A stretch of DNA of 64,000 bases from an uncultured Actinomycetota bacterium (GCA_963848065.1 CAWKBZ010000003.1:13147-77146); one strand, 5' to 3'. Shown: positions 31,272 to 48,161, counted from the stretch's first letter. Notes: generated by a model from the sequence alone, not told the origin. Program-made: numbers and translations.

Positions 31272-32708
31272 CTACTGCCCCGCGACCCGCCGCACGGCCT
31301 CCACGAGAAACCCCTGCGGCCGCGCGTCGGGCAACGTGGCCACCACCTCCTCAAGCGCCCGCCCGATCGGGACCCCACAATGCCGCGCCGCATACAGCGC
31401 GGCGACCGCGGGAGTTCGGCTGAGTGCCTGCACGCAGTGGAGCAGCACGGTCTTGCCTTCCGCGCGGAACGCCGCAACCGCATCCGCCGCGTCGGCCACC
31501 ACCAAATCAAGGTGCGGGTTCTTGGCTGGGTCGTCGTCGTCGACGAGCCACACCTCCACGTGCTCAGACGCGCGCACCTGCGCCGTGCCGACCCGGCACA
31601 GCGAGACGACGGCATCCACTTCGGCGGTATCCAGGGCGCCGACCGCGCCGATCCAAACCCCGTCATCATGTGGATGCCGCACCAGCGCCGAAACATCGCC
31701 CCAGTTTGAGTAGTCGAAGCGTTCCCCGCTCGGCCAGCCGTCACCCTCGGTCCCTGAGCCTGTCGAAGGGCCGCTCCGCGCCGCCAACACCGCCAAGGCT
31801 ACGAGGTCGCGCGAGCGGAGCCCCGGCCAGCCGTGCACGATGCGCCGCCATGCGGACGGAACGGCGGATGCTCCCCACCGCGCCCCCGCGAGCGAGCCTG
31901 CGATCGCGGCGACCGTGTCGGTGTCGTTGCCGCCGCGCACGGCCCGCTCGAGAATGTCGACGAGGTCGTCCCTGTGGGTGATCGCTGACCAAGCGCCCTG
32001 CAGCGCCTGCACGACCCAGCCGTTGCGGTTGAAGTCCGATGGATGCTTCGCCTCGGCCTCATCGATCCGGTCGCCCCAGACTCCCTGTCGTTCGACGGGC
32101 AGCGCGGCGAGCCCGGCTCGCAGGTCGTAGAACCCGGTGAGCACGGCATGGCGGATTGCGAGGCACCACAGCACGCACGCATCGCCAGCGTCATCCTCGT
32201 AGTGGGTGAGCTCACTGATCGCGCGGGCGGCCTCGACGAGTCCGTCGGGGTCGTCGAGGTAGGCGAGCGCGACGGGAGCGGTGCGCATGAGGGAGCCGTT
32301 GCCGCCGCTGCGTCCGTGCTGCTCGTGGTAGCTGCGAGATCGCTCCCGCGCGGCAGCTGCGGTTGGTTCGCTCCCCCGGAGGATCGCGCGGGTCTGGACG
32401 CCGACACCCTTCGCTGTCTTGGCCCAGTCGATCCAGGCTGCGACGATCTCGTCGAGGACGGTTTCGTCACGCAGGTCGCGGCCCGCTGCTGCGGCCCGGG
32501 CGATTGGGATGGCCATGGAGGTGTCGTCGGTCCACTCGCCCGGTTCCCAGCGGAAGCTGCCGCCGCCCTTCATGCTGACGGGCGCGTCATCCGGCATCGG
32601 CGGACCGAACTCGTACCCGGCGCCGAGCGCGTCACCGCAGGCAAGCCCGAGCATGACGCCGGCGGCTCGGTCGAGTTCTGGGGTGAGAGTCGCGCGCATC
32701 TTGTGCAC
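31272..32708 (-). CDS. ADP-ribosylglycohydrolase fused to a C-terminal Cys-X5-Arg (dual-specificity-phosphatase-like) domain
   Basis: 478 aa. ARH motifs LACGDALGAGYEF and GGNDTDTVAAIAGSLAGA. C-terminal ~150 aa contain LLHCVQALSRT (HCx5R[S/T]). Start is GTG 32708 or ATG 32699. Confidence 0.75.
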   Translation of the reverse strand: MHKMRATLTPELDRAAGVMLGLACGDALGAGYEFGPPMPDDAPVSMKGGGSFRWEPGEWTDDTSMAIPIARAAAAGRDLRDETVLDEIVAAWIDWAKTAKGVGVQTRAILRGSEPTAAAARERSRSYHEQHGRSGGNGSLMRTAPVALAYLDDPDGLVEAARAISELTHYEDDAGDACVLWCLAIRHAVLTGFYDLRAGLAALPVERQGVWGDRIDEAEAKHPSDFNRNGWVVQALQGAWSAITHRDDLVDILERAVRGGNDTDTVAAIAGSLAGARWGASAVPSAWRRIVHGWPGLRSRDLVALAVLAARSGPSTGSGTEGDGWPSGERFDYSNWGDVSALVRHPHDDGVWIGAVGALDTAEVDAVVSLCRVGTAQVRASEHVEVWLVDDDDPAKNPHLDLVVADAADAVAAFRAEGKTVLLHCVQALSRTPAVAALYAARHCGVPIGRALEEVVATLPDARPQGFLVEAVRRVAGQ

Positions 32709-32801
32709 CTACTGCAGTCCTACTCGAAACTTTACGATCCGTCAAAATCAGTACATAAGTTACTTACCGATATTGCTGCCTCTCCCCCACGACCAACAGA
32801 G

Positions 32802-33158
32802 GTAGATACGAGTCGTCCGCTGCGGGCCAAGCAGGCCCGGAATGAGGAGACTGATCTTCTTGTCGCTAGGTATCAAGAGTGTAGGAATGTCCGGCAAGTT
32901 GCACGAGAGTTCAGGATGTCCCGTGCGACCGTGGCGAGGCTACTTGCCACCCGCGGCATCGACACATCCCGCAGGATGAAGCCAGCCGATGTGAAACAAG
33001 CGGTTGAACTGTATGGGCAGGGTCTATCGAGCATGACGATCGGAAAGCAGCTTGGTTTTGATAATCACACTGTTCTCAATGCGCTGCGAAGTGCAGGGGT
33101 GAAAATTCGGCCAAGACTTACCGACAAAGGAAAAGAGCCTGACGCTCGCAGTGGATGA
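32802..33158 (+). CDS. Double-HTH DNA-binding protein; start codon unresolved (possibly 5'-truncated)
   Basis: Tail of ORF 32043-33158. LLVARYQECRNVRQVAREFRMSRATVARLL and AVELYGQGLSSMTIGKQLGFDNHTVLNAL are two HTH units. There is no in-frame ATG between the 32703 GTG and the first HTH unit (first in-frame ATG at 32916, inside it, then 32970). The only in-frame candidates are GTG 32703 and CTG 32820. Confidence 0.45.
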   Translation, partial: VDTSRPLRAKQARNEETDLLVARYQECRNVRQVAREFRMSRATVARLLATRGIDTSRRMKPADVKQAVELYGQGLSSMTIGKQLGFDNHTVLNALRSAGVKIRPRLTDKGKEPDARSG

Positions 33159-33229: not shown

Positions 33230-35929
33230 CTACGCGGTCTCCAACCCACGCCGTGCGACGAGCAGGCTCACGTCCTTGTTGTTCGAGCTGTGCGCAAGAT
33301 CCTGTAACACTGCCTGCTGGGTCTCTGGAGTCCAGAAGATGCGGAGCTTCTCACGCGCCCGTGTGATTGCCGTGTAAAAAATACTGTGAGTCACGTCTTC
33401 CTCATTGGCATCCGTAACTACAACTTTCACGGAATCGTACTCAAGACCCTGCGCCTTATGGATCGATACTGCGTAGGCGACCTGAAACGGTATCACCACG
33501 TTTACCGGCTCTGCATCATCGTCCCCGTCCCCGGATTCGAAAACATCGAAGCGGACTGTGGACCCTTCAACCCAGGTGAGATCCATAAGGCCCCAGGTGT
33601 CGAGTTCGCTGACAGGGCGGTCGAGCTCGATATCGAAGGAAACCTTACCCGGAGCGGCGCTAACGTCGACGATTCTGCCCTTCAGATTGTTGTAAATGAG
33701 CGGCTTGAATCGGTCGGTTTCATTGAAGAGGACCGGGTCGCCAACCCTGTAGGTCACTGCTCCACGCACCACAGCCTTGCCAGTATTGCTACTTTGCAGG
33801 AATCGGTTGATGTTGTTAATGCCGTATAGCCCGTCGTAGTTAAGGCAAAGAATAATTTCGTCTTGCTCCTGCGCCTGGAACAACGAACCATCGAGAATCG
33901 ATGAGTACCTGTTCGACGCAAGCGCTTCAGCAATATCATCGTCGATGTTACGGACCTTCGACCACAGGCCCAGGAGATCCCTGTTTCTTGTGCGGTATGG
34001 CGTAGTCAATTCGAAGACCGCAGTCGCAGGGATGAAGGAGTTGATGATCCTAAACCAGTTTCCAAATTGGATTGACTCGATTTGAAAGACGTCGCCGACG
34101 AGGACAATGAGCTTAAAGGGGACAGTCTCCAACACCTTCAGCAAATCGGCATTACTCACGGTGCTGCACTCGTCGATGAAAAGAACGTCGTAATCTATTC
34201 CATCCGCGCGACGAAGTTGTCCAGAGATAGTGCTGAACGTGGAATTCGGTGCATTCACACGGCGTTTCAAATTGTCCACCGCTGGGTTAGTCTGCGCTAT
34301 AAAGAGCTTCTGGCTCTCCCCGAAGTAGCTTGCGATGTGGTTAACCATGGTCGATTTGCCTGTGCCCGCCGCACCATAGATCACGGCCACGCGGGACTGG
34401 TCGAACAGCCGCTGAAGCGCCTCGTGCTTCAGCGGGTCATCAATCTCCGGCGTCGTGGGTTGCTCGAGCCAAACGTCCACAGCGGTTGAATAGCCACCCA
34501 CACCAGAGCCGGCGAACTGTTGCAGCTTCTCGATGATGGCGACGGTGCCGTCCTCATACTCCCGGACGAAGACGTGTCCCATGTCGATTATGAGTCGCCT
34601 TGCGGTGTGCTTGTAGTAAAGCTTCGCGTTGTAGGCCGCAACGAGCCTGACGACATCGCCGAGGTCTTCGAGCTCGACGATCGGCGTGTAGAGGACGCCG
34701 CGGATTTCAATGTTGTTCTTAATCCTTCGCGCGAGGAGCTCGTGATCGCGCCCTGAAACTTCCAGGCTCTCAGCGAGATCTGTGAAACGCGGGTTATGCC
34801 CGGGGAGCGATGTGCAGAACGGCATTGTCTCGAACGGGATACAGCCATAAGAGAGCTTCAGGCTCGAGAGCCGCTCACAGCCGTCCCATGTGTATTGCTG
34901 CTTAATGATGACGTTGTTCATTCGGAGCATCAGGTAGCGCAGAACGTTCGTTCCGGATGCGTTGGCGCGGACTATTCGACGAACTTCGTCGAGCATAGGC
35001 ATGATGCGTGGGGTCTGCGCTCGCTCAAGGGCCGCTGCCCGGATTACCGCGTAGTCCTCGTCTGGCGCATCGATAATATCCAACAGATTCGCGGCGTTCG
35101 TGGTGAGGTAATTCATCACGTAGCGGTACTCGACGTTGCCCGGATTCACCTTCGTCGACTGGCCAAGGAGTCGTGCAAAGTTGTCGAGCTCACAGGGGCG
35201 GATTGACACCTGCCAGTCGCGAATTATCAAGATTGGCATCGACTGCCCAAGTACCTCGATGCCGTCGTTCGCGAGGATGAGGCGAGCCGCATACTTGTCA
35301 GTCATATCGACGTGCGTAAAGGCGATGATGCGGTCGAATTTGCTGGCGCGATCGACAGGCGCTGTGAAGGTCACCTCGTAGTAGATGCGCCCGTTCACAA
35401 AGAACGGCCGGACCTTCCGGATGTAGTACCTATCCCACTTCTGCCTCTCTTCGGACGGAGTATCCCGCATCGCGTCGATCCGGTCGGCGATGCTCAGGTG
35501 GTACTCCCGGAGGGACGGGTCGAGGTCCACCGGAAAGGCTTCGAGGTTGGCGAGGATCGCCATGCCGCAACTGTCCCGGGCGAGGTCGCGGAGGCGATGC
35601 AGGTGCTCGTAGTACTTGAGCATCAAGCGCTCCGACGCGTCACCGTCGAGCGTATAGTGCGAGGCACTGATCTTCAGGAGATCGTGAAACCGACGAAGTG
35701 AACTGAGCTTGCCATTAGATCGCATGTGGGCGACACCAGACTCGATCGCTGCGTAGTCGAAGTCAACATCAGCGTTGCCGGTGTGGATGCAGACGGCCAG
35801 CCCTTCAATGAGGTTCCGCATCTGCGACAGGAGGTTCCTGGAAAGCAGCGCCCGATTGGTACTCAGAGTAGCGATGTTGTCAGTAATCGTTCGATCAGCG
35901 TTGCGTATTTGGTCTTTAACTGTGCTCAT
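33230..35929 (-). CDS. 899-aa protein: unassigned ~470-aa N-terminal region + RecD/Dda-like SF1 helicase core (candidate system gene 3)
   Basis: Walker A IYGAAGTGKST, Walker B VLFIDECS, LVGDVFQIES, VSIHKAQGLEYDSV, YTAITRAREKL. The ATG is preceded by GGCGGAG. Lies 15 nt after the upstream gene's stop. Confidence 0.8.
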   Translation of the reverse strand: MSTVKDQIRNADRTITDNIATLSTNRALLSRNLLSQMRNLIEGLAVCIHTGNADVDFDYAAIESGVAHMRSNGKLSSLRRFHDLLKISASHYTLDGDASERLMLKYYEHLHRLRDLARDSCGMAILANLEAFPVDLDPSLREYHLSIADRIDAMRDTPSEERQKWDRYYIRKVRPFFVNGRIYYEVTFTAPVDRASKFDRIIAFTHVDMTDKYAARLILANDGIEVLGQSMPILIIRDWQVSIRPCELDNFARLLGQSTKVNPGNVEYRYVMNYLTTNAANLLDIIDAPDEDYAVIRAAALERAQTPRIMPMLDEVRRIVRANASGTNVLRYLMLRMNNVIIKQQYTWDGCERLSSLKLSYGCIPFETMPFCTSLPGHNPRFTDLAESLEVSGRDHELLARRIKNNIEIRGVLYTPIVELEDLGDVVRLVAAYNAKLYYKHTARRLIIDMGHVFVREYEDGTVAIIEKLQQFAGSGVGGYSTAVDVWLEQPTTPEIDDPLKHEALQRLFDQSRVAVIYGAAGTGKSTMVNHIASYFGESQKLFIAQTNPAVDNLKRRVNAPNSTFSTISGQLRRADGIDYDVLFIDECSTVSNADLLKVLETVPFKLIVLVGDVFQIESIQFGNWFRIINSFIPATAVFELTTPYRTRNRDLLGLWSKVRNIDDDIAEALASNRYSSILDGSLFQAQEQDEIILCLNYDGLYGINNINRFLQSSNTGKAVVRGAVTYRVGDPVLFNETDRFKPLIYNNLKGRIVDVSAAPGKVSFDIELDRPVSELDTWGLMDLTWVEGSTVRFDVFESGDGDDDAEPVNVVIPFQVAYAVSIHKAQGLEYDSVKVVVTDANEEDVTHSIFYTAITRAREKLRIFWTPETQQAVLQDLAHSSNNKDVSLLVARRGLETA

Positions 35930-35944
35930 AGACTTACGCTCCGC

Positions 35945-37312
35945 CTACCAATAGATGGCGATTACATCGACGTCGAGGAGGCGCGGGGCATCGACAGGTT
36001 CATCTATTGCCGGGGTAGACGCCGTCACGACAGCGCTGGCCGTGAGAGACGGGAAGAGGGAGAGACCAGCCGCTTGCCGGGCCGCCTCTCGTAGCTCCAG
36101 TGCCCTGGCGGCTTCTGGCCGTTTACCGACCATCTCGACAAGCGCGTCGGTCAGCGCACCGAAAGCGGCTCGCTGCCCTGACACCAACGAGGCCCCTGGC
36201 TTCAGCTGTTCAATTAGCATGCCGATCATGCCTGTTTGTTCGTCGGTTAGTTGCTCGCCAAGATCGGCGAGGACTGCATGGGCGTATGACTGAAGCGCCT
36301 TGCCGAGTCGCCCCTCATTGACGTTCTCAGTGTGCCCCGATCCAACAGCGCCGAACGGAACCTTTCCCGCAGCGTTGATTTGATCGACCAGATTCGGCGT
36401 AACAAGGCGGAATAGATCGGCCAGCTTGACTGGCGTCCAGCTCTCACTAAGGCCGGGCCTCGATATCCGGCACATCATCGTGAATTCGGCGTCCGAGAAC
36501 AGGACGCGACGAATGTCCTTCCAATACGCGAGATGCTCGGTGACCCCTACCACCTCCAGAGGCTTTGCAGGCAGGCCCAATCCTTCGACCAGCTCACGAT
36601 GAGCGACGTACTCGACCTTGTCCAGCTCGATGACGACATAGTCGACGGCAATCGCACGGATAGGAATGAGTCCGGCAAGTAGTCGCTGGAGAATCTTGTT
36701 GATTGGCTGGACCTCTTGAAGCGACGCCAAGCCGTTTCCAGCAGCAAACATCTCTGGGTAGTCCTCAGCCATTCCCGTGAACTCAGAAACCATTGTGCCT
36801 AGATGGAAGACGGGGTCTGCAGAAAGCCGAACACGAAACTCGACGAGCTTGCCACGCTGCAGCCCGTCGGCCTTGACTATCAAAGATGGTTCACGCACCT
36901 TTTTCAGCTCGACCAAGTCCTTTGCGGGTTTCGAAGCCCTCGCTGGCTGAATGAGCCGCAGGCCCTCGATTTCATGGAGCTCCCGGAACCAGGACTGCAC
37001 GGTCGACTTGCGGGATGTCTGAATTGTGCTGCTGTTGCTGGTCTGGTAGCGCGACTCGAGCTCAGCCTTCGCGATGAGCGGTGAATTCACCCCCATCGTT
37101 CCTGCGAGAGCAGCCTCACGCGCATCAGTGGCTTGCTCCGATGTGGAGTCGGTGACACCGCCCTTCTGCGAAGAAAGCAGGCTGCGGAGACTGACTTCAT
37201 CTAGATAGACGAACTCGCGAAGGTCCGGCTTCTCCGCGTCGACAGCACTGTGTTCCGGCTCAGATGCGACAAGCTTGTTCCGACGCCAGAGCCAAGACCT
37301 TGACAAGCTCAC
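35945..37312 (-). CDS. 455-aa protein of unknown function (candidate system gene 2)
   Basis: Uninterrupted ORF. GTG start overlaps the upstream stop (GTGA at 37309-37312). No TM helix and no catalytic motif recognised. The N-terminus is EFVYLDEVSLRSLLSSQKGG. Confidence 0.7.
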   Translation of the reverse strand: MSLSRSWLWRRNKLVASEPEHSAVDAEKPDLREFVYLDEVSLRSLLSSQKGGVTDSTSEQATDAREAALAGTMGVNSPLIAKAELESRYQTSNSSTIQTSRKSTVQSWFRELHEIEGLRLIQPARASKPAKDLVELKKVREPSLIVKADGLQRGKLVEFRVRLSADPVFHLGTMVSEFTGMAEDYPEMFAAGNGLASLQEVQPINKILQRLLAGLIPIRAIAVDYVVIELDKVEYVAHRELVEGLGLPAKPLEVVGVTEHLAYWKDIRRVLFSDAEFTMMCRISRPGLSESWTPVKLADLFRLVTPNLVDQINAAGKVPFGAVGSGHTENVNEGRLGKALQSYAHAVLADLGEQLTDEQTGMIGMLIEQLKPGASLVSGQRAAFGALTDALVEMVGKRPEAARALELREAARQAAGLSLFPSLTASAVVTASTPAIDEPVDAPRLLDVDVIAIYW

Positions 37313-38535
37313 GCGATCACCTCGAGTCCATTGCCACGGCGCGGCCTCATGGCGACACGTTCGAAGGCTTGGGCGACGTCTTCAGACGAAATCATGTCGC
37401 GCGAGTCGCCAGCCGCCAGGAGGGCCGCCTCTGTCCAAATCGAGGTTAGGTCCGCAGCCGACCAGCCTTCCGACAGACCCGCGACATCTTCAAGCGGTAG
37501 CTCATCAGCCGTCTTCAGTTGACTAGCCCGAACCTTCAGGATCTCGTACCGATCTAATATGGTTGGCAGGCCGAACTCGACTTCCCAGTCGAAGCGGCCA
37601 GGGCGAGTAAGTGCCGGGTCGAGTGCATCAACTCGGTTCGTTGCTGCGATGACGACGACGCTCTTACCCTTATCGTCGAAACCATCCATCAATGTCAGCA
37701 GCTGTGCGACCAAACGCTTTGACGCCTCATGCGACTCGCCCGTCCGCTTCTCCGCAATGCTGTCAATCTCGTCAAAAAAGATGATGGCCTTGCCGCTCTT
37801 GGCGTTTGTCGCGGCATCGAAAATTCGCCGCAAGGTGTCTTCAGCGTCACCTAGGAACTTGCTTACGATTGATGGCCCGCTGATGAGATAGAAGTCGGCT
37901 TTTGACTCGCGAGCAATAATTCGAGCCAAGTGCGTCTTGCCAGTACCGGGAGCGCCCGTGAAGAGAATTCCCTTTACAGGACGGGCACCAATGGCATCGA
38001 GCCGATCCCGCTGCTCAAGCTGAGTTTCAATGAGTTCTTTTGCCCTTGCGATAACGTCTGGGTAGCCGCCGAAGTCTTCAAACGTCGGCCCCTCTCCAGC
38101 CTTATCGACCAGATACTCGGCTTCAATGTTTTCGTTCTCGTTGCCGAAAATGCCGCTCTTAATTGGTCGTTGCGACACCACCGAAAGCACGCCCTGCGCG
38201 TCGTTGAACTCGATCATGTTCCCGGAGGCGAGCTCCAGGGCCTGAGGATTGGCGACCCGCTGGAAGCCGACTCCGCTATCGACGAGGACCGTGCCGTCAT
38301 CAAGCACCTTCCTGACTGTCGTGATCTGGCTTGATTGATGCCAGAGGTCGTCCGGCGCAAACTCCCAGTGGTTCTGGCCGACCAGCAGCACATCGCCTAC
38401 CCCGACTTCTTCCGTGTTCTCTAAACCCGAGACACGACCGATGTTCCCGCTCTGTGTCTGGAAGTGAATGGTCGTGTCGTCTGGATCGATCCGAATCACT
38501 TTGAAGAGCTGGCCGACCACCACCTGATCACTCAT
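37309..38535 (-). CDS. Classic-clade AAA+ ATPase (FtsH/CDC48-like single AAA module) with unassigned N-terminal domain (candidate system gene 1)
   Basis: ATG 38533-38535 with GAGGAGG 7 nt upstream. Walker A GAPGTGKTH, Walker B IIFFDEIDS, sensor-1 IAATN, second region of homology PALTRPGRFD. The ATG overlaps the DUF45 stop (ATGA). Confidence 0.85.
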   Translation of the reverse strand: MSDQVVVGQLFKVIRIDPDDTTIHFQTQSGNIGRVSGLENTEEVGVGDVLLVGQNHWEFAPDDLWHQSSQITTVRKVLDDGTVLVDSGVGFQRVANPQALELASGNMIEFNDAQGVLSVVSQRPIKSGIFGNENENIEAEYLVDKAGEGPTFEDFGGYPDVIARAKELIETQLEQRDRLDAIGARPVKGILFTGAPGTGKTHLARIIARESKADFYLISGPSIVSKFLGDAEDTLRRIFDAATNAKSGKAIIFFDEIDSIAEKRTGESHEASKRLVAQLLTLMDGFDDKGKSVVVIAATNRVDALDPALTRPGRFDWEVEFGLPTILDRYEILKVRASQLKTADELPLEDVAGLSEGWSAADLTSIWTEAALLAAGDSRDMISSEDVAQAFERVAMRPRRGNGLEVIA

Positions 38536-39256
38536 GACCAATCCTCCTCGGCGAGCGGTGCGTCGTTCAGTTCGTCACGCAGCGCACGCCAGTTCGGCAA
38601 GTGCTTGTCCATCAATTCCACGAAGCGGTCGTTATGCGTGCGCTCATGCAAGTGCAACATCTCGTGAACGACGATGTATTCGAGACATAGAGGATGTTTC
38701 TTGGCGAGTTCGATGTTGAACCATACGCTGCCGGAATCCGGGTTACACGAGCCCCATTTCGTCTTCATGCGGCGCACCGTCCACTTACTCACTCGTTGGC
38801 CAACTAGGGGTTCCCACTTCTCGATCAACAGAGGAATTGCAGCTTTACATTTGCCTGCGATACCAGGACTCCAAGAGTTTCCGACGTTGTACATCGCCCG
38901 TGCCGCTCGGAGCCGATAGCTGCAGTTTCGACCCGGCGACGTCGATGCCTGGGCGCGCCAGACCGCTCAATCAGTTTCAACCGAAGCCGCTGGCCCCACA
39001 CGTAGTGCGACTCGCCTGTGACCATCTCGCGCTCAGACTGTCGCTCCGCAGCTTGGAGCTGCTCTCGCTGTTTCTTGATCCACGGGAGGCGCTGCACGAC
39101 CGCGAGCCGAATAGCGTCTTCGTCGAGGCGATCCGGTGCTGCAACGCGGACCCTGCCGATTGGCGGGTACACAGATATGTGCATGTTCTTGATGTTCTTG
39201 TACACGACGTCGACGCTGATCCCGGCGACGCTCAGGTAGCCGTTAGCGGTACTCAT
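38532..39256 (-). pseudogene. DUF45/YgjP-type (M48-like) metal-dependent hydrolase; at least 2 frame disruptions
   Basis: N-terminal part in ORF 38825-39256. Middle segment IDVAGSKLQLSAPSGTGDVQRRKLLESWYRRQ is in a third frame. C-terminal part in ORF 38532-38894 has HEMLHLHERTHNDRF. Switches are near 38950 and 38850. Confidence 0.8.
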
Positions 39257-42200
39257 CGCGGGCCCTCACTAGATCGAAGAGTTCGTCGAACCGGCCGAAC
39301 TCGGCTGGCAAAACCCTCTTGATCGCGTTGGCGACGATCTTCTCTTTCATTTTGTTGCCAACCCAGTCGTGCGGCTTCGCGACGCCGATCACAGCGTCCA
39401 GTTGAATCGGCATGGCTTCGTTGTCCCAGCCAAAGTCGAACAGTGCTTTCTGGGCACCGTTCTTCGCCCAGACGGGGTAGACGGTATCGGACTCCTTCTT
39501 GCCAACCTTCGTAGCCAAGGCGATCAGCTCTTCGAGATACTGCTTGTAGTCAATCGCCTCTTGGCGACGCTGCTCGATAAGCGCATCCAACAGCGAGGAC
39601 ATCGTCTCGTAGTACTTCGGGTTCATCGCATGCTCGTCGATGATGGTCTTGCGCACGTTATTGACGATCGTTTCGGCGACGGCGTCCTTGTTTTTCTTGA
39701 TGCCGATCGGCAACGCATCGATGGCACCTGCGCCACGTTGCACGATCAGATCGACAAGGCCGGTGTCCTCGAACTCTGCGACAATCTCGGAGTTGCCCGC
39801 CTGGATATAGGTATCCAGCAGGAAGCGCATGCCTGCTTCGAACTGCTTAAAGTCGACGTTCTCGCCTGCCCCGAGCTTGACCTCGTCGCGTACTGCGACA
39901 TAGTGAGCGACTTCCTTCTTGATCGCGGCAGCCTGGCGCGGTGTAGCCCGCGGCATCCATGTCATTGGCAAGCACCGCGTACGCGCGCACAGGCCGCTCA
40001 CCGATTTGTATAGCTCCACGCGCTTCGGCTCGTTTGCCTTGAGCTGGTCTGCGTTGCCGGCCTCCGCAGCACAGAAGTAGTGCTGGTACTGCAGCGTCTC
40101 CTTCGGTGGCGCGACGGGTTCGCACAGACGCCGGATTCGCTCGATTGCCTCATCGAGGTCTTTGCGCTCCTGCTCGCTACGGTTCTTTAGCAGCCCTTCG
40201 ATATCCGTCTTCTCGTAACCGTCCAGCGCACCGGAGGTGTAGTCGGTGATGGCATCCTCGAGCGAATTGAAGAGGTCTTGGTAGTCGACGATGTAGCCGT
40301 ACTCCTTGTCGTCCCCATCGAGGCGATTTACTCGACAGATCGCCTGAAAGAGGCCATGGTCGCGCATCGTCTTGTCGATATACAGATAGGTAGCGGAAGG
40401 TGCGTCGAAACCGGTCAGCAACTTGTCGACCACGATGAGCAGACGCATCTGGCCGGGCTCTTCAATGAATCGACGCTTGACGTCCTTCTCGAACTGCTCG
40501 ATCTTCAAGACCGCTTGGTCTGCCGGTTCGTCGAAATAGTCGGCGAGCATCTGGCGATAGATGTCGTACTGACGAAGTTTCTCGGTTGCGCCGTCGCCAG
40601 CATCCTCTTTAGAGATGTCGCCGGCCTTCGGCACGTAGCTAGTGACAATCGCCACCTTGCCCTTGAACCCAGCCTGAACGAACATTTCGTAGAACTTGCA
40701 AGCCTGATAGATGCTTGAGCCGACGAGCATGGCATTGCCGCGACCGTCCATCAAGCGCGGCCGGTATCCATATCGAGCAGGATGTCCTGCACAATCTGTT
40801 TCGCGCGCGGTTCGGCGCTAGACGACCTTCTGCATGGTGCCCCAACGCTTCTTGAGCTCGGCTTTGGACAGGTCGGTCATGCCCTTGGTCTTGGCATCGA
40901 ACCACTTATCATCTTGTCGTGGCAGTTCAGGTCCTGATCGATGTTGCGCGCCTCGTAGCGAAGGTCGAGCACGACGCCATCTTTGACAGCCTCGTCGAAC
41001 TTGTAGGTATGAATGAAGCTACCGAATGTCTCGATACTGGTCGTCTTGTCGGCCTTGAGCAGAGGCGTGCCGGTGAAACCAATAAACATCGCTCTAGGAA
41101 GAAGCTTCTTCATCGCCGATGCATCTTGCCCGACTGGGTGCGGTGCGCCTCGTCGACAAAGACAAAGAAGTTGCCTTTCGCGCTGAACCGGCGGGATCTT
41201 GGCGTTCAGTTCGGCGATGAATCGTCCTCGATCTCGTCGCGCCTCTCGTCGTCGCGCCCCGGAACTTGTGCACAAGGGAGCAGATCAACTGCGGTTTGTG
41301 ATTGTTAGGCTGTGATCAGGTCAGCGCCGCTGGTGGTGCGATAGATCTGCTCGTTGACACCGCCGAACACTTTCTCGATCTGCTCATCCAACTCGGTGCG
41401 ATCGGTGATGATCAGCACTCGTGCTTCGGTTGGTGTTCACTGATCCACTTCGCTAGCCACACCATCGTCAGGCTCTTGCCGGACCCCTGGGTATGCCAGA
41501 TGATGCCACCCTCACGCTTGGCGACGCGCGCCTGGCTGCCTTCACTCCGAAGTACTGATTGTGACGGGCAGTCTTCTTGATGCCGGCATCGAACACAATG
41601 AAGTCATGAATCAGCTCGAGGAAGCGTTCTTTGGCGCACATCTGAAGCAAGCCGCGGTCCAGCGGCTCTTGGACGTCAGATGGTTCCTTCCACTCGAGCC
41701 AGTACTTCTCGGGAGTCTCGATAACGGCATAGCGAAGACCCTCGACATCATTACCCGCAAATAGCATCTGGACTGTCGTGAAGAACGGACGAATGAAGTC
41801 CTTTTTCTGGTTCCCTATGTTCTGACGGATGCCTTCCGAGACGCCGATTTTGGACCGCTTGAGCTCGATGACACCGAGCGCGATGCCGTTCACGTAAATA
41901 ACGACGTCCGGGCGTTTTGTGTGTTCGCCCTTGATCGATACCTCTTCGGCAACCACGAAGTGATTGGCCTCCGGGTTCGACCAGTCCACGAGCCAGACCG
42001 TCTCGAATTGCTCCCCGATACCGTTTGACCTTCACGCCGTATCGCAGAAGGTCGTAGACCTCGCGGTTGGCCTCGTAAAGCGTTCGACCGCCGCCGAGCG
42101 ATGCGGCCTTCTTCAGTTCGGCAATCGCCTTGTCCGCTAGCGCGGCCCGTAGTCGCGAGCGAGCAAGTTCTGGGTGAGCAGTTCGACCTCAACATGAGAA

Positions 42201-42307
42201 TTGTCTTCTCGGTACTCCCAATTGCCGAGATAGTCGTATCCAAGTTGCTGGAACAACCCAACGACTCTGTCCTGCGTCTTGCGCTCGATCTGTCCGACTA
42301 CGCTCAT
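39243..42307 (-). pseudogene. hsdR: Type I restriction enzyme R subunit; about a dozen frame disruptions
   Basis: ATG 42305-42307 with GGAGG. Fragments: MSVVGQIERKTQDRVVGLFQQLGYDY; the nuclease domain (ORF 41468-41989); GIIWHTQGSGKSLTMVW; VLIITDRTELDEQI; the DEAH box FVFVDEAHRTQSG; FIGFTGTPL (ORF 40877-41275); the C-terminal 503 aa (ORF 39243-40754). Consecutive motifs lie in different frames. Confidence 0.85.
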
Positions 42308-43492
42308 GCTGCGACCTCCACAGGTTCAGACGAGTGCGGCCGGTCAGAAGCTCCTGCATCATGCCCCGCTGACGTTTCGCAAGTGAATCGAGGCGACGTT
42401 TAAGCGCTGCGATTTCGGCATCGGCTGCGTCGAGTGCGTCGACAATTGCATTCTGCTCCTGGCGCGAAGGGGGTACTGCAACAACAAATGACTTGAAGGT
42501 CGGCAGGCGTAGCGAGTCGACTGTCGCTTCAACGCTGTTTTCCATCGCGTGCTTTCCAAAAAACTCGGTGCATGAAGTAATAGATGAACTTGCCAACCAC
42601 CTCGTCGGTGAAGTCACTTACCTTGTACACCCTTTGATGCACCTCAAACTTGCCATTGATGTAATGGAATATCGAGCCGATGTTCCCTTCGCCCGGCACG
42701 AGGATATTGCCTCGCCTTCGTAGGAATAGCTGTCGATTCTCTCCACGATCGCAGACCTGACATAAAACGGGTACGCCCACCTTCACCCTTGTCCTGGTTA
42801 ATGCGAATGCCCGTCTTGCTTCGAACAACGGCACCGAGCGTTGTTTCGGCCATGGCGTATCAAATCCGCGCAGCCGAGATTTGCCGGTCAGGAGCTGCTG
42901 CATCATGCCCTGCTTCATGGCCTGCTTTTTCGCGATCAAACGATCAACTGACATCAATCAACCGAGCCGTCGTGGATATGGAATCAGCGATGGCTACTGT
43001 TGCGAAACTGGCGGAAGGGGGATGATAAAGCGCGAAGATCGCGGGCACCAAGTTCGGCTGCGCAGCGCCGCCTGCCCACTTTTCAATCTCCTGTGCACAC
43101 AGCTCGGACGCCAAATACGCGGCGAGAAACTCCACGGTAAAGTCTTGACGTCGGGCGTCGGATTATCACGAGCGAGCTCGCAATTGCCCCGTTCGGGGCG
43201 GCAGCATCGACAAGTGCGAATTTGCCGAGCGAGCCTCGCAGGCAAACACAGAACATCTCCACTACCAAACTTTCCACTCCCGAGGCGTGCAAACGTCGCT
43301 CCGGGGATGTAGTCCACGTTAGCTGAAGTCGATACGCCCAGAGCGCAGGTGGCCAGCGTTCACAAAAGGAGCGCCCGTTGGAATCGAACGAGCCCGGTGA
43401 CGGGATAATCACGCCTCTATCTCCGTCTCAAATCGCACACAGTGCGCCAAGCGTCGATAGTGGCCAGGGTGCCGCCACAGCTGGTCGTCCAC
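42304..43492 (-). pseudogene. hsdS: Type I R-M specificity subunit; several frame disruptions
   Basis: Two TRD halves. Conserved spacers are VDRLIAKKQAMKQGMMQQLLTGKSRL and IAALKRRLDSLAKRQRGMMQELLTGRTRL. The ending SEPVEVAA* in an alternative frame overlaps the hsdR ATG (ATGA). The pieces are spread over ORFs 42189-42617, 42529-42957, 42994-43317 and 43083-43412. Confidence 0.75.
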
Positions 43493-45921
43493 TAGTGCAC
43501 CCCCATACCCAGCTAGGTGTGTAACGACCCGGGCACCGAGCGCTTGAAGCTCAGCCTCGAGATCGGCGAGCGTCTGCGTCGTAGCGCTCCCCAAGTTCAG
43601 TGATGCGTGCAATGAGCCTCTCGGTCAGACCAGCGACCTCAAGGCGAATGCGCTCCTCGGTCGTCGCCTGCCACTTGTCGTCAATGACCAACTGCTTGAA
43701 TGTCTGTCGTCGTCAACTTCCCGTATTGAGCAAGCGTGGCCTGATCGAGCTCGTGCCCCGACTCCTTCGCAGTTTTCTTCGCTGTAGCTTCTGCCTCGTA
43801 GAGCGCAATGAGTTCTGCGAGGGCTGCAACTTCGCCGCTTCGAGGATCTTCGCGTTTGGCTTCACGAAGTCGTGCGCTCGCGAGCGTCTTGCTGATCTTG
43901 CCGTCATCCATGGCATCGGCAAGGAGACCATCCTCGACCTGAGTTCTCCTCCACAAACTCCTCGATCGTCTGTGCGGCGCTCTCTACCTCGGCGTTTAGC
44001 TCGTTGACCTTCGCTTGTTCGTCCGCGAAGTAGCGCGCGACGATGAGGTGCAGGCGGAACAGGTCCATCTTGTACTTGGTGCGGTCACGCCCCGAACCGA
44101 TCACGAGGTCAGGAGTTTCGGAGAGCTTCCGATCCTTATCTTCGATAGTCTTACGCGGCTTGGCTGCGCCATCCCAGCCTTCGCTCATGATGAGCGCGAC
44201 GTCGTCGTGCATAGTCCTGATTCCAGTAGCTCATGAGCTGTTCGTAGACCGCGTACTCGTCCACGAGAGGCCGGGGTGGAAGATGTCGAGAAGGTTCTCC
44301 GAGGGTGCGCTGATGAGTTCAGCGGGTTTGGTCGACCGGTGATCCCGGCAAGCTGCTCGCGATGTCCGCTCCACCATTCCGATACGAGGTCGCGGACTGG
44401 TCGAGTTGAATACCTTGATACTCAGCCGAGCTCGTGATCGTCGCTGTGAACGTCATGCTTCTCGACAGCGAGTTCGAATATCCTTCTCGGAGAGGCTCGA
44501 AAAAGGTCGGATCTTAGTGAGGGAAACGCGTTCCAATATGCGCTCGAGCGCGTCGATGTCACGGTTCGGGATGCCGCCATTCATGTGCGCGTGGAGGTCC
44601 TGAATATCCTCAGGTTCGGAGGAGTCGATGTAGCGCGGAATGTTGAGGTTGAAGTCGTTGGCGCTCTTCGATCTCGCTCAGCGGCACCATGCGGGAGTAG
44701 CCTGGATCTCTGCCTGCTTGGTGAAAGCATCGACAATCTTGTGAATGTCCGGGGGCGCAGCCGGTTCTTCGGTCCGTCCTTCATGAAGCCTTTAGAGGCG
44801 TCGATCATGAAGACCCCAGTGCGCGCCTGGGCGTTCTCCTTGTCAATCACAAGGATGCAGGCAGGGATACCAGTGCCATAGAAGAGGTTGGCGGGCAGGC
44901 CAATGATGCCCTTGATGTAGCCGCGCTTGATGATCTCCTTGCGAATCGTCGCTTCCGTGTTGCCGCGGAAGAGCACACCGTGCGGCAAAATCACCGCGCC
45001 CTTGCCATTGCTCTTGAGCGACTTCAGCATATGAAGCAAGAAGGCGAAGTCGCCGTTCTTCTCGGGCGGACGGCCATACTCGAAGCGGCCGTATCGTTCT
45101 CAAGTCCATTGCTCCAGATTTGACCGAAAACGGCGGATTGGCGACCAGCGAAGTCGAAAGTCTCGAGCTGGTCTCTGTCGGTGAACTGCGGGCTGGCGAT
45201 CGTGTCGCCCTTGCGAATGTCTGCGATCTCGTTCCCGTGCAGGATCATGTTCATCTTGGCCAGAGCCCAGGTGGCGTTGTCTTTCTCCTGCCCGTAGATG
45301 GTCAGGCCGTGCGGCGCAGCATCCGCGACCTTGAGAAGCAGCGATCCCGACCCGCAAGTCGGGTCATAGACCGTTGTCTGGCGTGGTCGCGCTGATACCG
45401 ATCACTTGGCCAGATCGCGCGAGACCTCGGCAGGAGTGTAGAACTGCCCCTTTGACTTGCCCGACTCGGTGGCAAAGTGTCGCATCAGGTACTCGTAGGC
45501 GTCGCCGAGCAGGTCGTCGCCTTCGGCGCGGGAGCCACGGAAGTCGAGGTCCTGGAAAATCGAGATCAGGTTCGTCAGGCGATCCTGCATCTCCTTACCT
45601 TTGCCGAGCTTCTCTTCATCGTTGAAGTCCGCAAGGTCAATAACCTTCTGAAGCTCGTTGGCCTCGGCGAGCTTAGCGATCGCCTTGTTGATCTTGTCGC
45701 CGATCTCCTTGTCACCCTTGAAGGTGACCAGATCGTCAAAAGAGCCGCCGGCAGGCACATCGATCAAACTGTTCTTGTCGGACCTGCGCTTTATCGGTGA
45801 CATACTTCACGAAGAGGAGTGTAAGCACGTAGTCCTTGTACTGCGAGGCGTCCATGCCGCCACGGAGTTCGTCCGCACCTCTCCAAAAGCGAGCTATACA
45901 GGGCTGATTTTTGAGTGCCAT
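43492..45921 (-). pseudogene. hsdM: Type I R-M N6-adenine DNA methyltransferase, long form (~810 aa); about ten frame disruptions
   Basis: Fragments: MALKNQ..ADELRGGMDASQYKDYVLTLLFVKYV; GQFYTPAEVSR; VYDPTCGSGSLLLK; VANPPF (~45128-45145); GAVILPHGVLFRGN..GIIGLPANLFYGTGIPACI. The C-terminal coiled-coil region is in ORFs 43681-43956 and 43904-44212. Motifs alternate between frames. Confidence 0.85.
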
Positions 45922-45957
45922 TAGCGCTCGACCACCTTGAGCACCAAGCGCGCCTCA

Positions 45958-46161
45958 TTAAAAGTCGTTCGTCTCGCGGTAAGTCATCTCGTGCGTGTTC
46001 TCCTCGACATCGAGCGCGTCGTCGTGGTTGTCCACAAGGCGTTGATTGAGGTTAGCGGGATAGACCGACGTGGGCATGCTCTGAAGTCGATTCGCCCGGA
46101 TCTTCGGCGCGCGCACGCCCACCAATTCACCGCTCACTTCAAGCAGGTCAGGAAGACTCAC
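45958..46161 (-). CDS. Small ORF (67 aa) coupled to the exonuclease gene stop; function unknown
   Basis: GTG 46159-46161 overlaps the upstream TGA (GTGA). Ends 36 nt before the hsdM ATG. No family recognised. Confidence 0.3.
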   Translation of the reverse strand: MSLPDLLEVSGELVGVRAPKIRANRLQSMPTSVYPANLNQRLVDNHDDALDVEENTHEMTYRETNDF

Positions 46162-47382
46162 TCCCCCAGCAATCGCACCAACCCCGCTTCATCCACTATC
46201 GGGATCCCATAGTCGCGCGCCTTGCGGGCCTTGCCCGAGAGGGAGTCCGGGTCGGCGGCCACGAGCAGGCTCACCTTCTTCGTCACTGCCGCCCAGGGGG
46301 TGAAGCCGCGGGCGATCAGTTCGCCCTCCCACTGCTCGCGCGCCCGCGACATCTCGCCGGTCAGCACGATCAGGTCACCGGGTGAGAGCGTGAACTCCGG
46401 GGCCGCCCAGTCGGGGGCGAGGGCTGCCGGTTGCGGGGCGGATGCCGCATCCAGAACCGCGGTCAGCGCATCCGTTGGAATGTCGAGCAGGTTGGCCACG
46501 TCGACGAGGTCGGCCATCTCGTTGTCCGTGAGCTCGCCATCCGCCCAGGCGACGCGAGCGAGGGTGTCGAAGTACTCGAGGTGCAGCTTCTCGCAGGTGG
46601 TGCGGTTCATGCCCGACTCTTCCGCGAGCTGCACGAGCGCCTGCGCCTCATGCACCGAGAGGTGCCGGTCGAGCAGGCAGCGATCGAGCAGCGCAAGGTA
46701 GTTGAGGTGCTCGGCCGGGCCCGCAAACTCCGGCAGCTTCAGCGTGATGCGCTGCAGGAACGACTCCGCGGTGACCTCGATCGCTTGCTGCGGGCGTGGA
46801 TGCCAGTTCGACTCTGCGGCAGGCAGCGCTGGCCACTCGTATCGCAGGGCGTTGGTGAGGTGCTCGTCAGCAACTACCTCGTTGGTGAGGTCTCGATACG
46901 CGGCCTCGCTTCGCTCGGTCGCTACTCGACCAGCGGGATTGGCGCCGCGCTATTCGACAGCAGGCGGCGCAGCAGTCGGCGAGGGAACGGCCGGCACCCG
47001 GCAGAAACTCGTGGGCGAGCTGCATCGTACAGAGGGATACGAGGTCTGGCAGCATCCACTGTCCGGATCTTTGCAGTTCGGCGACGAGGAACCTCGTGTC
47101 GAAGCTGGCATTGTGTGCGACCACGACACGGCCGGCGAGCAACTGCACCAGTTGGCCGGCGATCTGCTCGAACGGCGGGGCGGTCACGATGTCAGACGAG
47201 CGGATGCCGTGGATGCGCTGCGGGCCAAGGTCGCGTCGCGGGTTCACCAGGGTCTCCCACTCCCCCTCGACCCGGCCGTCCGTGCTGACGTGCACGACGG
47301 CGAGTTCGATCACCCGGTCGTGGCTGCCGGGGAACAGGCCGGTGGTCTCGAAGTCAATTACGGCGAAGCCTGGGCCTGGCAT
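46158..47382 (-). pseudogene. DEDDh 3'-5' exonuclease (DnaQ-like) + TerB-like + BRCT domain protein; disrupted
   Basis: Exo I VIDFETTG and Exo II VVAHNASFD are in ORF 46867-47382. The Exo III H-x4-D segment is absent. The middle part is in another frame. The C-terminus (ORF 46158-46655) has WADGELTDNEMADL and BRCT-like IVLTGEMS...KVSLLVAADPDSLSGKARKARDYGIPIV. Confidence 0.7.
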
Positions 47383-47405: not shown

Positions 47406-48161
47406 ATGTACGTTCAGCGGATGGTGCGATACGGAGACTATGTCATATATGTGCTTGAGAGCGGGGACCACAATCTGGTGGACTTCGACACGCAATACCC
47501 GATGTTTGTGCTCGCTTTTTGCATCTTCCCCATCCAGCACTACATCGATCACATCGTGCCGCGCGCGCTCAATCTAAAGTTCGCCTATTTCGGGCACGAC
47601 ATGGTCGTGCTTCACGAACGTGAAATTCGCCAATCCAAGCACCCCTTTTACATCCTGCTCAACCCAACTGTGCGAGGCCCGTTCCTGAAGGAAATCGACG
47701 ACTTGATCGCGGAATCCCGTTTTGGGATCGTCGCTAGCGTCATTGAGAAGAACGAGTTCAAATCACGGCGCGGCGCTGACATCAGCCCGTACTCGGTAGC
47801 GCTGGAGTTCGGGCTCGAGCGGGTGTTTCTCCAACTTCAGCAGCGCAACCAGACGGGTAGGAGAACGTTCGTCGTGTTCGAGAGTCGCGGCAAGAAGGAA
47901 GATGCCGAGCTCGAGCTCGAATTCCGACGCATCATGCAAACCACTCGCATGAGGGGCATGCCTCAAACTCTGGAGTTCCTCTGCGTCAGCAAACTGACCA
48001 ACAGCACCGGGCTGCAAGTTGCCGATATGGTGGCGCGGCCGATCGGGATACACGCACTGCGGCCGGCGCAGGCGAACCACGCATGGGATGTGCTTGAGAA
48101 GAAGCTAGTGCGATCGCCGGATGAAAAAGTGTTTGGGTACGGGCTGAAGTCGTACCCCTAG
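47406..48161 (+). CDS. DUF3800 domain protein
   Basis: 251 aa. YVIYVLESGD at the N-terminus, FESRGKKEDAELE, and LQVADMVARPIG near the C-terminus. An alternative ATG is at 47421. Confidence 0.65.
   Translation: MYVQRMVRYGDYVIYVLESGDHNLVDFDTQYPMFVLAFCIFPIQHYIDHIVPRALNLKFAYFGHDMVVLHEREIRQSKHPFYILLNPTVRGPFLKEIDDLIAESRFGIVASVIEKNEFKSRRGADISPYSVALEFGLERVFLQLQQRNQTGRRTFVVFESRGKKEDAELELEFRRIMQTTRMRGMPQTLEFLCVSKLTNSTGLQVADMVARPIGIHALRPAQANHAWDVLEKKLVRSPDEKVFGYGLKSYP

Follow-up and report, generated by a model that had tools for sequence, protein, structure and literature searches.

A stretch of 64,000 nucleotides (nt) from an uncultured Actinomycetota bacterium (GCA_963848065.1, CAWKBZ010000003.1:13147-77146; hereafter the window, in whose coordinates all positions are given) carries three intact, co-directional and tightly packed minus-strand genes at 33230-38535. 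These encode an AAA+ ATPase (gene 1, G1), a protein of 455 amino acids (aa; gene 2, G2) and a helicase (gene 3, G3). An earlier reading of the same DNA, made from the sequence alone and called here the sequence-only reading, had described this arrangement correctly and had proposed that the three genes form a single undescribed defence module. The comparative analysis presented here leads to a different view, which we consider likely to be correct: the locus comprises an autonomous two-gene defence module resembling Dodola (G1-G2) and an independent helicase of the PDC-S53 family (G3), and the two modules are probably co-transcribed only as neighbours.

Both junctions quoted for the trio are present in the sequence. 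The TGA stop of G1 and the GTG start of G2 share four nucleotides (GTGA), and a 15-nt spacer, gcggagcgtaagtct, with a GGAG-type ribosome-binding site lies between the TAG of G2 and the ATG of G3. The sequence-only reading did not mention a further junction, an ATGA in which the ygjP-like frame upstream ends and the ATG of G1 begins. From this ATG the G1 product is 408 aa, as on record, and an alternative TTG at 38541 would give 410 aa. No frame switch occurs within the 5.3 kilobases (kb) from G1 to G3. A scan of 32.7-39.4 kb returned no promoter-like site, and terminator-like sites at the level expected from shuffled sequence. The guanine-plus-cytosine (G+C) content, judged low by eye beforehand, was computed as 0.55-0.59 over 33-46 kb against 0.63-0.67 in the flanks. 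The closest relatives of the window's own proteins are from Georgenia.

Co-occurrence across genomes separates the helicase from the other two genes. Homologs of G2 were collected from one genome per species across 185,579 species (GTDB), which gave 79 loci at 28-74% identity. A full-length G1 homolog lies directly upstream on the same strand in every one of them (79/79), and 51 of the 79 offer the 4-nt stop/start overlap between the two genes. No G3 homolog appeared in the 10 kb on either side (0/79), and no other family takes its place, the commonest third neighbour being present at only 8 of the 79 loci. The reverse search agreed: none of 91 loci with G3 homologs (57-78% identity) has a G1 or G2 homolog nearby, at least 3 kb of upstream sequence being present in 46 of them. 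Among the G3-homolog contexts that were read, one follows a cluster of Type III restriction-modification (R-M), AAA_13 and DUF2130 genes and another lies among housekeeping genes. The pairing also holds for more divergent G2 homologs on plasmids (~24-28% identity; four annotated loci, in Corynebacterium, Tsukamurella, Halobacterium and Haloarcula), each of which is preceded by an AAA ATPase that is itself a G1 homolog (E 1e-57 to 1e-104). The expectation that G2 homologs would be linked to their neighbours was thus upheld for the ATPase and failed for the helicase, an outcome that the sequence-only reading had named beforehand as telling against its proposal.

The closest relatives of the pair show the same pattern. 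In seven further loci (G2 72-77% and G1 86-88% identical), the helicase is absent wherever enough downstream sequence survives; two of these loci (L178 and L179) end within 200 base pairs of G2. Furthermore, a convergent open reading frame (ORF) with an HTH_7 helix-turn-helix domain stands directly after G2 in loci L181-L184, L007, L016 and L017, and its homolog in the window comes after G3 instead (31% identity to the ORF directly after G2 in L181-L184, E 1e-11). Taken together, the two-way co-occurrence, the closest relatives and the structure of the islands around the HTH_7 gene indicate two modules and not a trio. G1 and G2 are an invariant pair, shown by their arrangement to form a two-gene operon with predicted translational coupling, and G3 is separate cargo, an independent module. 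In two close relatives, the DUF6414 gene (the G2 homolog) is intact and the ATPase is truncated: L171 (8582-8962) retains a 126-aa remnant, and L173 (2857-4890) keeps one of 227 aa with an IS4 transposase immediately before it. Cells therefore tolerate the DUF6414 protein on its own.

No motif had been recognised by eye in G2, which the sequence-only reading left unassigned; a Pfam search now identifies it as a DUF6414 protein (PF19952, E 4.8e-63, 214 bits) matched over the full length of the model (positions 1-283). The family is modest in size but widespread, with 908 homologs found; in a search of 1.84 billion representatives, 720 clusters at 50% identity matched with E<=1e-3. An AlphaFold2 (AF2) model of G2, with a predicted local distance difference test score (pLDDT) of 74, combines an alpha/beta core with a helical bundle and a terminal strand. 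A Ser/Thr/Gln/Asn-rich segment at residues 52-101 (window 37010-37160) is predicted to be disordered and is among the most conserved parts of the protein, with S58, S87, T91, Q98, T99, K102, T104, Q106, S107 and F109 invariant in or near it. Searches for structural relatives were negative, as a G2 profile found none among PDB sequences (best E 0.17, to Shroom) and Foldseek of the model returned nothing below E 0.29 in PDB or among the viral structures of BFVD. A scan of viral contigs gave no relatives of G2 either. Two candidate functional features were considered and dropped. The invariant C-terminal I-Y-W could be mistaken for a proteasome-docking HbYX tail; in the model it is a core beta-strand, and the homologous strand of DolA, the DUF6414 protein of Dodola, is internal. 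A PD-(D/E)xK nuclease site was also discarded, there being no matching motif or fold.

The assignment of G1 as a single-module classic-clade AAA+ ATPase with intact motifs was confirmed by matches to PF00004 (AAA, 141 bits) and AAA_lid_3 (PF17862), behind about 150 residues without a Pfam assignment, and every motif that had been quoted for G1 and G3 was found in the translations. The AAA core (residues 153-389) matches p97/Cdc48/VAT in PDB at E~1e-106. Across 76 G1 homologs, the Walker A and B motifs, the pore loop SK[WF]xG, the sensor-1 TNR and the RPGRFD motif are at least 90% conserved, and the C-terminus (...LEVIA) is unconserved. For the N-terminal region, a profile of 61 homologous domains matches the oligonucleotide/oligosaccharide-binding (OB) domain of PAN (2wg6/2wg5, E 0.004-0.006; PAN 6he8, 0.055) over residues ~66-123. 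Similarly, the top NCBIfam models for the protein are PAN, CDC48 and FtsH, all far below their cut-offs, with the PAN alignments beginning at residue 66, and a relaxed Pfam search gave a faint Prot_ATP_ID_OB_C match. The N-domain is therefore probably one or two OB-type beta barrels, judging from these profile matches. As the catalytic and pore-loop motifs are kept, the PAN OB domain is matched and the C-terminus is unconserved, G1 has the appearance of an OB-AAA unfoldase that is active, threads its substrate and carries no tail for docking to the proteasome.

The presence of DUF6414 makes the comparison with Dodola, which had been offered as an analogy, a good lead, since G2 carries the domain of DolA. 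Dodola consists of DolA (DUF6414) and DolB, a ClpB-like ATPase (Millman et al., 2022, 10.1101/2022.05.11.491447), and the reference sequences used here were taken from the supplement of that preprint. In both cases, two adjacent co-directional genes encode a DUF6414 protein and a single-module AAA+ ATPase, and both occur in defence islands. DolA of B. cereus FM1 (256 aa) passes PF19952 at 1.2e-21, and an N-terminal (V/I)Y(F/L)DE motif is shared by G2 and DolA. By eye, a Ser/Thr-rich segment (in Bacillus DolA before the first long helix) and a C-terminal hydrophobic strand are also common to the two. There are also differences. DolB (362 aa) is closer to AAA_2 (72 bits) than to PF00004 (39 bits), whereas G1 scores 141 bits with PF00004 and 18 bits with AAA_2, has a PAN-like OB N-domain and is 22% identical to DolB over the P-loop core only (BLASTP). 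G2 is larger, with 455 aa against 256-260 aa for DolA. The ATPase precedes the DUF6414 gene in 79 of 79 loci, whereas DolA comes first in the cloned Bacillus (B. thuringiensis) fragment, and the hosts are Actinomycetota, Alphaproteobacteria, Chloroflexota and haloarchaea as opposed to Firmicutes. The PADLOC models agree with these differences: the DolA model PDLC03837 reaches only 12.5 bits (E 0.027) with G2, over the N-terminal motif (residues 33-113), and the DolB model gives no match to G1 even at E<=10. Because the partner ATPase is not ClpB-like and the DolA model does not recognise G2, the pair is, on sequence criteria, a Dodola-like variant with the same architecture and DUF6414 family and not a member of Dodola itself. 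It probably represents a deep, separately evolving branch of the DUF6414-plus-AAA+ architecture, of which the Firmicutes branch is the validated Dodola.

Other AAA+ systems share parts of this organisation. G1 shares with PAN, ARC-Mpa and Cdc48/VAT a classic AAA module that carries a pore loop and Arg fingers and is preceded by an OB domain. Unlike PAN and ARC, it has no coiled coil and no C-terminal HbYX motif, reaches 231 bits against a family cut-off of 500, and is found, always paired with DUF6414, in lineages without a 20S proteasome. Membership of the proteasomal ATPases was rejected for G1 on the family cut-off and the tail, although an OB-like segment is detected. Defence systems built on a classic-clade AAA+ remodeller are known from IetAS and from CBASS with TRIP13 and HORMA proteins, where TRIP13 acts on HORMA and so provides a precedent for an unfoldase gating a partner protein. 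The PADLOC models of IetA and TRIP13 match G1 at E 6.8e-37 and 1.7e-16, in the AAA core only (residues 168-393), and the partner of G1 is a DUF6414 protein, not a subtilase/protease or a HORMA protein. IetAS was rejected, since the NCBIfam IteA model scores 102 bits against a cut-off of 510 and the adjacent gene is not an IetS subtilase; TRIP13 was rejected as a generic match to the AAA core only.

The third gene belongs to a different category. G3 aligns end to end with PDC-S53, a single-gene phage defence candidate in PADLOC-DB v2.0.0 (1306.9 bits, E 0, residues 1-896 on model positions 1-896 of 900). It stands alone in variable contexts, as expected of a single-gene system, and no structural difference was seen. 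By its sequence it is a new member of this catalogued candidate family, which no paper names in the literature searched. The description of G3 as a RecD-like helicase behind a long unassigned N-terminus was also accurate. Its core matches AAA_30 (PF13604, 8.5e-19) and UvrD_C_2 (PF13538, 2.4e-12), with RecD2 matches in TIGR01448 (2.3e-28, below cut-off) and PDB (3e1s, 2.7e-11), and helicase motifs I, II, III, V and VI hardly vary across 42 homologs. No Pfam family matches the first ~500 residues, even at E<=1. An AF2 model of this region (pLDDT 71) contains a helical domain, an OB-like beta-barrel at ~166-241, a second helical domain and a low-confidence segment at 338-389, and Foldseek against PDB gave nothing below E 0.09, only weak recurrent matches to OB and single-stranded-DNA-binding proteins. 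C351, C363, C372 and H378 (window 34760-34880) are invariant, as is C246, and lie in a segment with pLDDT below 50; the Cys3His residues may be a metal-binding site that needs its ion or a partner to fold. PDC-S53 helicases are unusually uniform (895-918 aa, 57-78% identity) across Actinomycetota, Proteobacteria, Bdellovibrionota and one Nitrososphaerota archaeon. Such uniformity implies strong constraint along the whole protein, including the N-terminal 500 residues, and frequent horizontal transfer. No relatives of G3 were found in the viral contig scan.

A working model can be proposed for each module. G1, a hexamer-type ATPase with a PAN-like OB domain, a Cdc48/PAN-type AAA core and an intact pore loop, would form a complex with G2 and use ATP to engage or remodel it, plausibly through the disordered segment 52-101 or the conserved N-terminal strand. 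Remodelling could then either release an effector activity of G2 or unfold a phage protein that G2 presents, and infection would be stopped. Any specific step of this gating model is doubtful at best, and no mechanism for Dodola was found in the literature discussing it. G3 would need no partner to act on nucleic acid, using its RecD-like motor together with an N-terminal region that may have an OB-like fold and a metal-binding site; that it senses or unwinds single-stranded nucleic acid is a conjecture drawn from these same features.

The genomic setting of the pair is consistent with a role in defence. Among the 79 loci, immediate neighbours include Type I, II, IIG and III R-M systems, Gabija GajB, a CBASS cyclase with effectors, Old and a Type IV restriction endonuclease; AbiEi, HamB, AriA, MkoC and PDC candidates also occur, and elsewhere the neighbours are housekeeping genes. 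The distribution of the pair, in Actinomycetota, Alphaproteobacteria, Chloroflexota and on haloarchaeal plasmids, is patchy and horizontally transferred. At 6-8 of the 79 loci, which represent two distinct R-M lineages, a Type I R-M operon has the pair at its 3' end. An intact YgjP homolog is upstream in seven loci, and in six of them it overlaps the G1 start, an overlap also present in the window with its decayed ygjP. Leucobacter sp. cx-42 and Klenkia sp. are examples of strains that carry an intact hsdMSR-ygjP-G1-G2 operon. Within 10 kb, about 88% of the loci lack any Type I R-M gene. In L181-L184 (1-7004), two AAA_13 genes (355 and 803 aa) are interspersed in the Type I R-M operon that the pair follows, hsdR and an AAA_13 gene standing just before the pair. 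AAA_13 genes recur beside both modules, as they accompany the pair in these loci and the PDC-S53 helicase in L080, together with Type III R-M and DUF2130.

In the window itself, the defence island described by the sequence-only reading is present, with Type I R-M fragments, a split YgjP-like/DUF45 gene, an RNase_T exonuclease and a DUF3800 gene. The operon directly upstream of G1 is decayed. Compared by blastx with the intact syntenic operons of L013, L014, L017 and L023, it contains at least 12 frame switches over 38.5-45.9 kb, about six in hsdM, at least four in hsdR and two in ygjP. The ygjP-like pseudogene aligns as three blastx segments in three frames with intact homologs of 241-263 aa. 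The contrast drawn earlier with the intact 5.3 kb of G1-G3 therefore stands, and the extent of the decay was overstated, being about a dozen disruptions over 7.4 kb and not dozens over ~9 kb. An assembly artefact is unlikely to be the source because the decay is restricted to 38.5-45.9 kb; sequencing error behind the R-M frameshifts was dropped on the same ground, the flanking genes being intact. The pair sits directly behind this Type I R-M/ygjP operon, at its 3' end, and the operon has probably decayed since the pair was added.

Three other explanations of the locus need to be weighed against two independent modules. That the ATPase, the DUF6414 protein and the helicase constitute one three-component defence system is suggested by the tight packing (the GTGA overlap and the 15-nt spacer with its ribosome-binding site) and by the survival of all three genes beside a decayed operon. 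Shango (SngA, TerB; SngB, ATPase; SngC, helicase), to which the sequence-only reading had likened the trio, also places an ATPase and a helicase in one gene train. This likeness is superficial, as other genomes show no linkage of helicase and ATPase and no Sng model in PADLOC matches G1, G2 or G3. With no shared locus in either direction of the co-occurrence search (0/79 and 0/91), no helicase beside the closest G1/G2 relatives, G2 followed directly by the HTH_7 gene in related islands and G3 matching a single-gene family from end to end, a three-component system is very improbable, and the claim of one undescribed three-protein module is not borne out.

A link to restriction would make G1-G2 an accessory of Type I R-M, for instance an unfoldase that strips or inactivates stalled HsdR complexes with YgjP and the DUF6414 protein as co-factors, comparable to the action of ClpXP during restriction alleviation in E. 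coli. The overlap of G1 with ygjP where a Type I R-M operon ends, found both in the window and at six of the 79 loci and with two R-M lineages, fits such a role, as does the position of the pair directly after hsdR and an AAA_13 gene in L181-L184. The great majority of pair loci without a Type I R-M gene within 10 kb do not, their remaining neighbours being unrelated defence systems or housekeeping genes, and in the window the pair is intact and the R-M operon dead, the reverse of the state expected for a dedicated accessory. We regard this role as quite unlikely. It is also unlikely that the pair is a selfish module of the addiction or toxin-antitoxin-like kind, or else a stress-proteostasis module, carried along by mobile islands and plasmids without acting against phage. 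Its patchy, horizontally transferred distribution, plasmids included, would suit such a module, and the two relatives with a truncated ATPase show that G2 alone can be tolerated. Intact G2 without an intact ATPase nevertheless speaks against a simple scheme in which the ATPase neutralises a toxin; moreover, the neighbours are rich in recognised defence genes, and the sole characterised DUF6414-plus-AAA+ pair is anti-phage.

Several points weigh against the view of a Dodola-like defence pair with an independent helicase. Phage-resistance tests cover only the distant Firmicutes Dodola (Bacillus, S. thermophilus). The homology of G2 and DolA rests on a broad Pfam model: the PADLOC DolA model gives the marginal match noted above, hhalign of the G2 family with DolA reached only E 0.02 over 48 N-terminal columns, and hmmsearch with a broader G2-family hidden Markov model was non-significant. 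G2 is without a structural relative and its model confidence is moderate, and the mechanism of the pair is one that we infer. The neighbour survey was built on crude ORF calls and carries no formal enrichment statistic. Finally, the 15-nt spacing between G2 and G3 permits co-transcription, so functional cross-talk between the two modules is possible in this strain.

If the Dodola-like pair is read correctly, its invariable coupling to a different AAA+ clade in Actinomycetota, Proteobacteria, Chloroflexota and haloarchaeal plasmids would suggest that the essential partnership is between a DUF6414 protein and any substrate-threading unfoldase. More broadly, and tentatively, DUF6414 might be an unfoldase-gated immune component with a fold absent from solved structures, and on two or more occasions it would have taken up a non-orthologous AAA+ motor as partner, of PAN/Cdc48 type here and in haloarchaea and of ClpB type in Firmicutes Dodola. 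Under the same proposal, the G1-G2 branch (~460-720 clusters at 50% identity) would be a functional anti-phage system missed by the DolA/DolB models of PADLOC-DB v2.0.0, and the disordered segment would be the handle for the OB ring and pore. The comparison also singles out that conserved segment as a handle open to testing. For annotation, the branch defines a family that PADLOC-DB v2.0.0 does not call Dodola, and the locus would best be recorded as two systems, a Dodola-like pair and a PDC-S53 helicase, and not as a new three-gene system, which avoids mis-annotation.

Table 1. Features of the locus, in window coordinates, with the matches on which each assignment is based.
Feature	Position	Strand	Basis
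G1, single-module classic-clade AAA+ ATPase; PAN-like OB N-domain, AAA core and lid	37309..38535	-	PF00004, AAA_lid_3
G1 N-terminal domain, residues ~1-150; probably one or two OB-type beta barrels	38086..38535	-	PAN OB profile match
G2, DUF6414 protein, 455 aa, GTG start	35945..37312	-	PF19952
G3, superfamily 1B (SF1B, RecD-like) helicase, 899 aa	33230..35929	-	PDC-S53, AAA_30, UvrD_C_2
G3 N-terminal 500 residues	34430..35929	-	AF2 model; no Pfam match at E<=1
ygjP-like (DUF45) metallopeptidase pseudogene, 2 frame switches	38535..39256	-	Both halves match PF01863; blastx
Type I R-M operon, decayed, with 10 or more frame switches	39246..45927	-	Pfam fragments N6_Mtase, HsdM_N, HSDR_N, T1R_D3-like
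hsdM, part of the decayed operon	43502..45927	-	
hsdS region, part of the decayed operon, after hsdM		-	
hsdR, part of the decayed operon	39246..42307	-	
Convergent HTH_7 (resolvase-type helix-turn-helix) ORF, left edge of the island	32706..33158	+	HTH_7, E 5.6e-07

Other neighbours in the window were also recorded. Beyond the decayed operon, an ORF for an RNase_T/DnaQ-type exonuclease (46867-47382, minus strand) precedes one that matches TerB and BRCT weakly (46158-46655, minus strand), and a frameshift may have divided a single gene into these two. Next to them, on the plus strand, is a DUF3800 gene (47406-48161). On the other side, just outside the low-G+C island, a 478-aa protein encoded at 31272-32708 on the minus strand has an ADP-ribosylglycohydrolase domain (E 2.7e-55) and, fused to it, a C-terminus that weakly resembles dual-specificity phosphatases.

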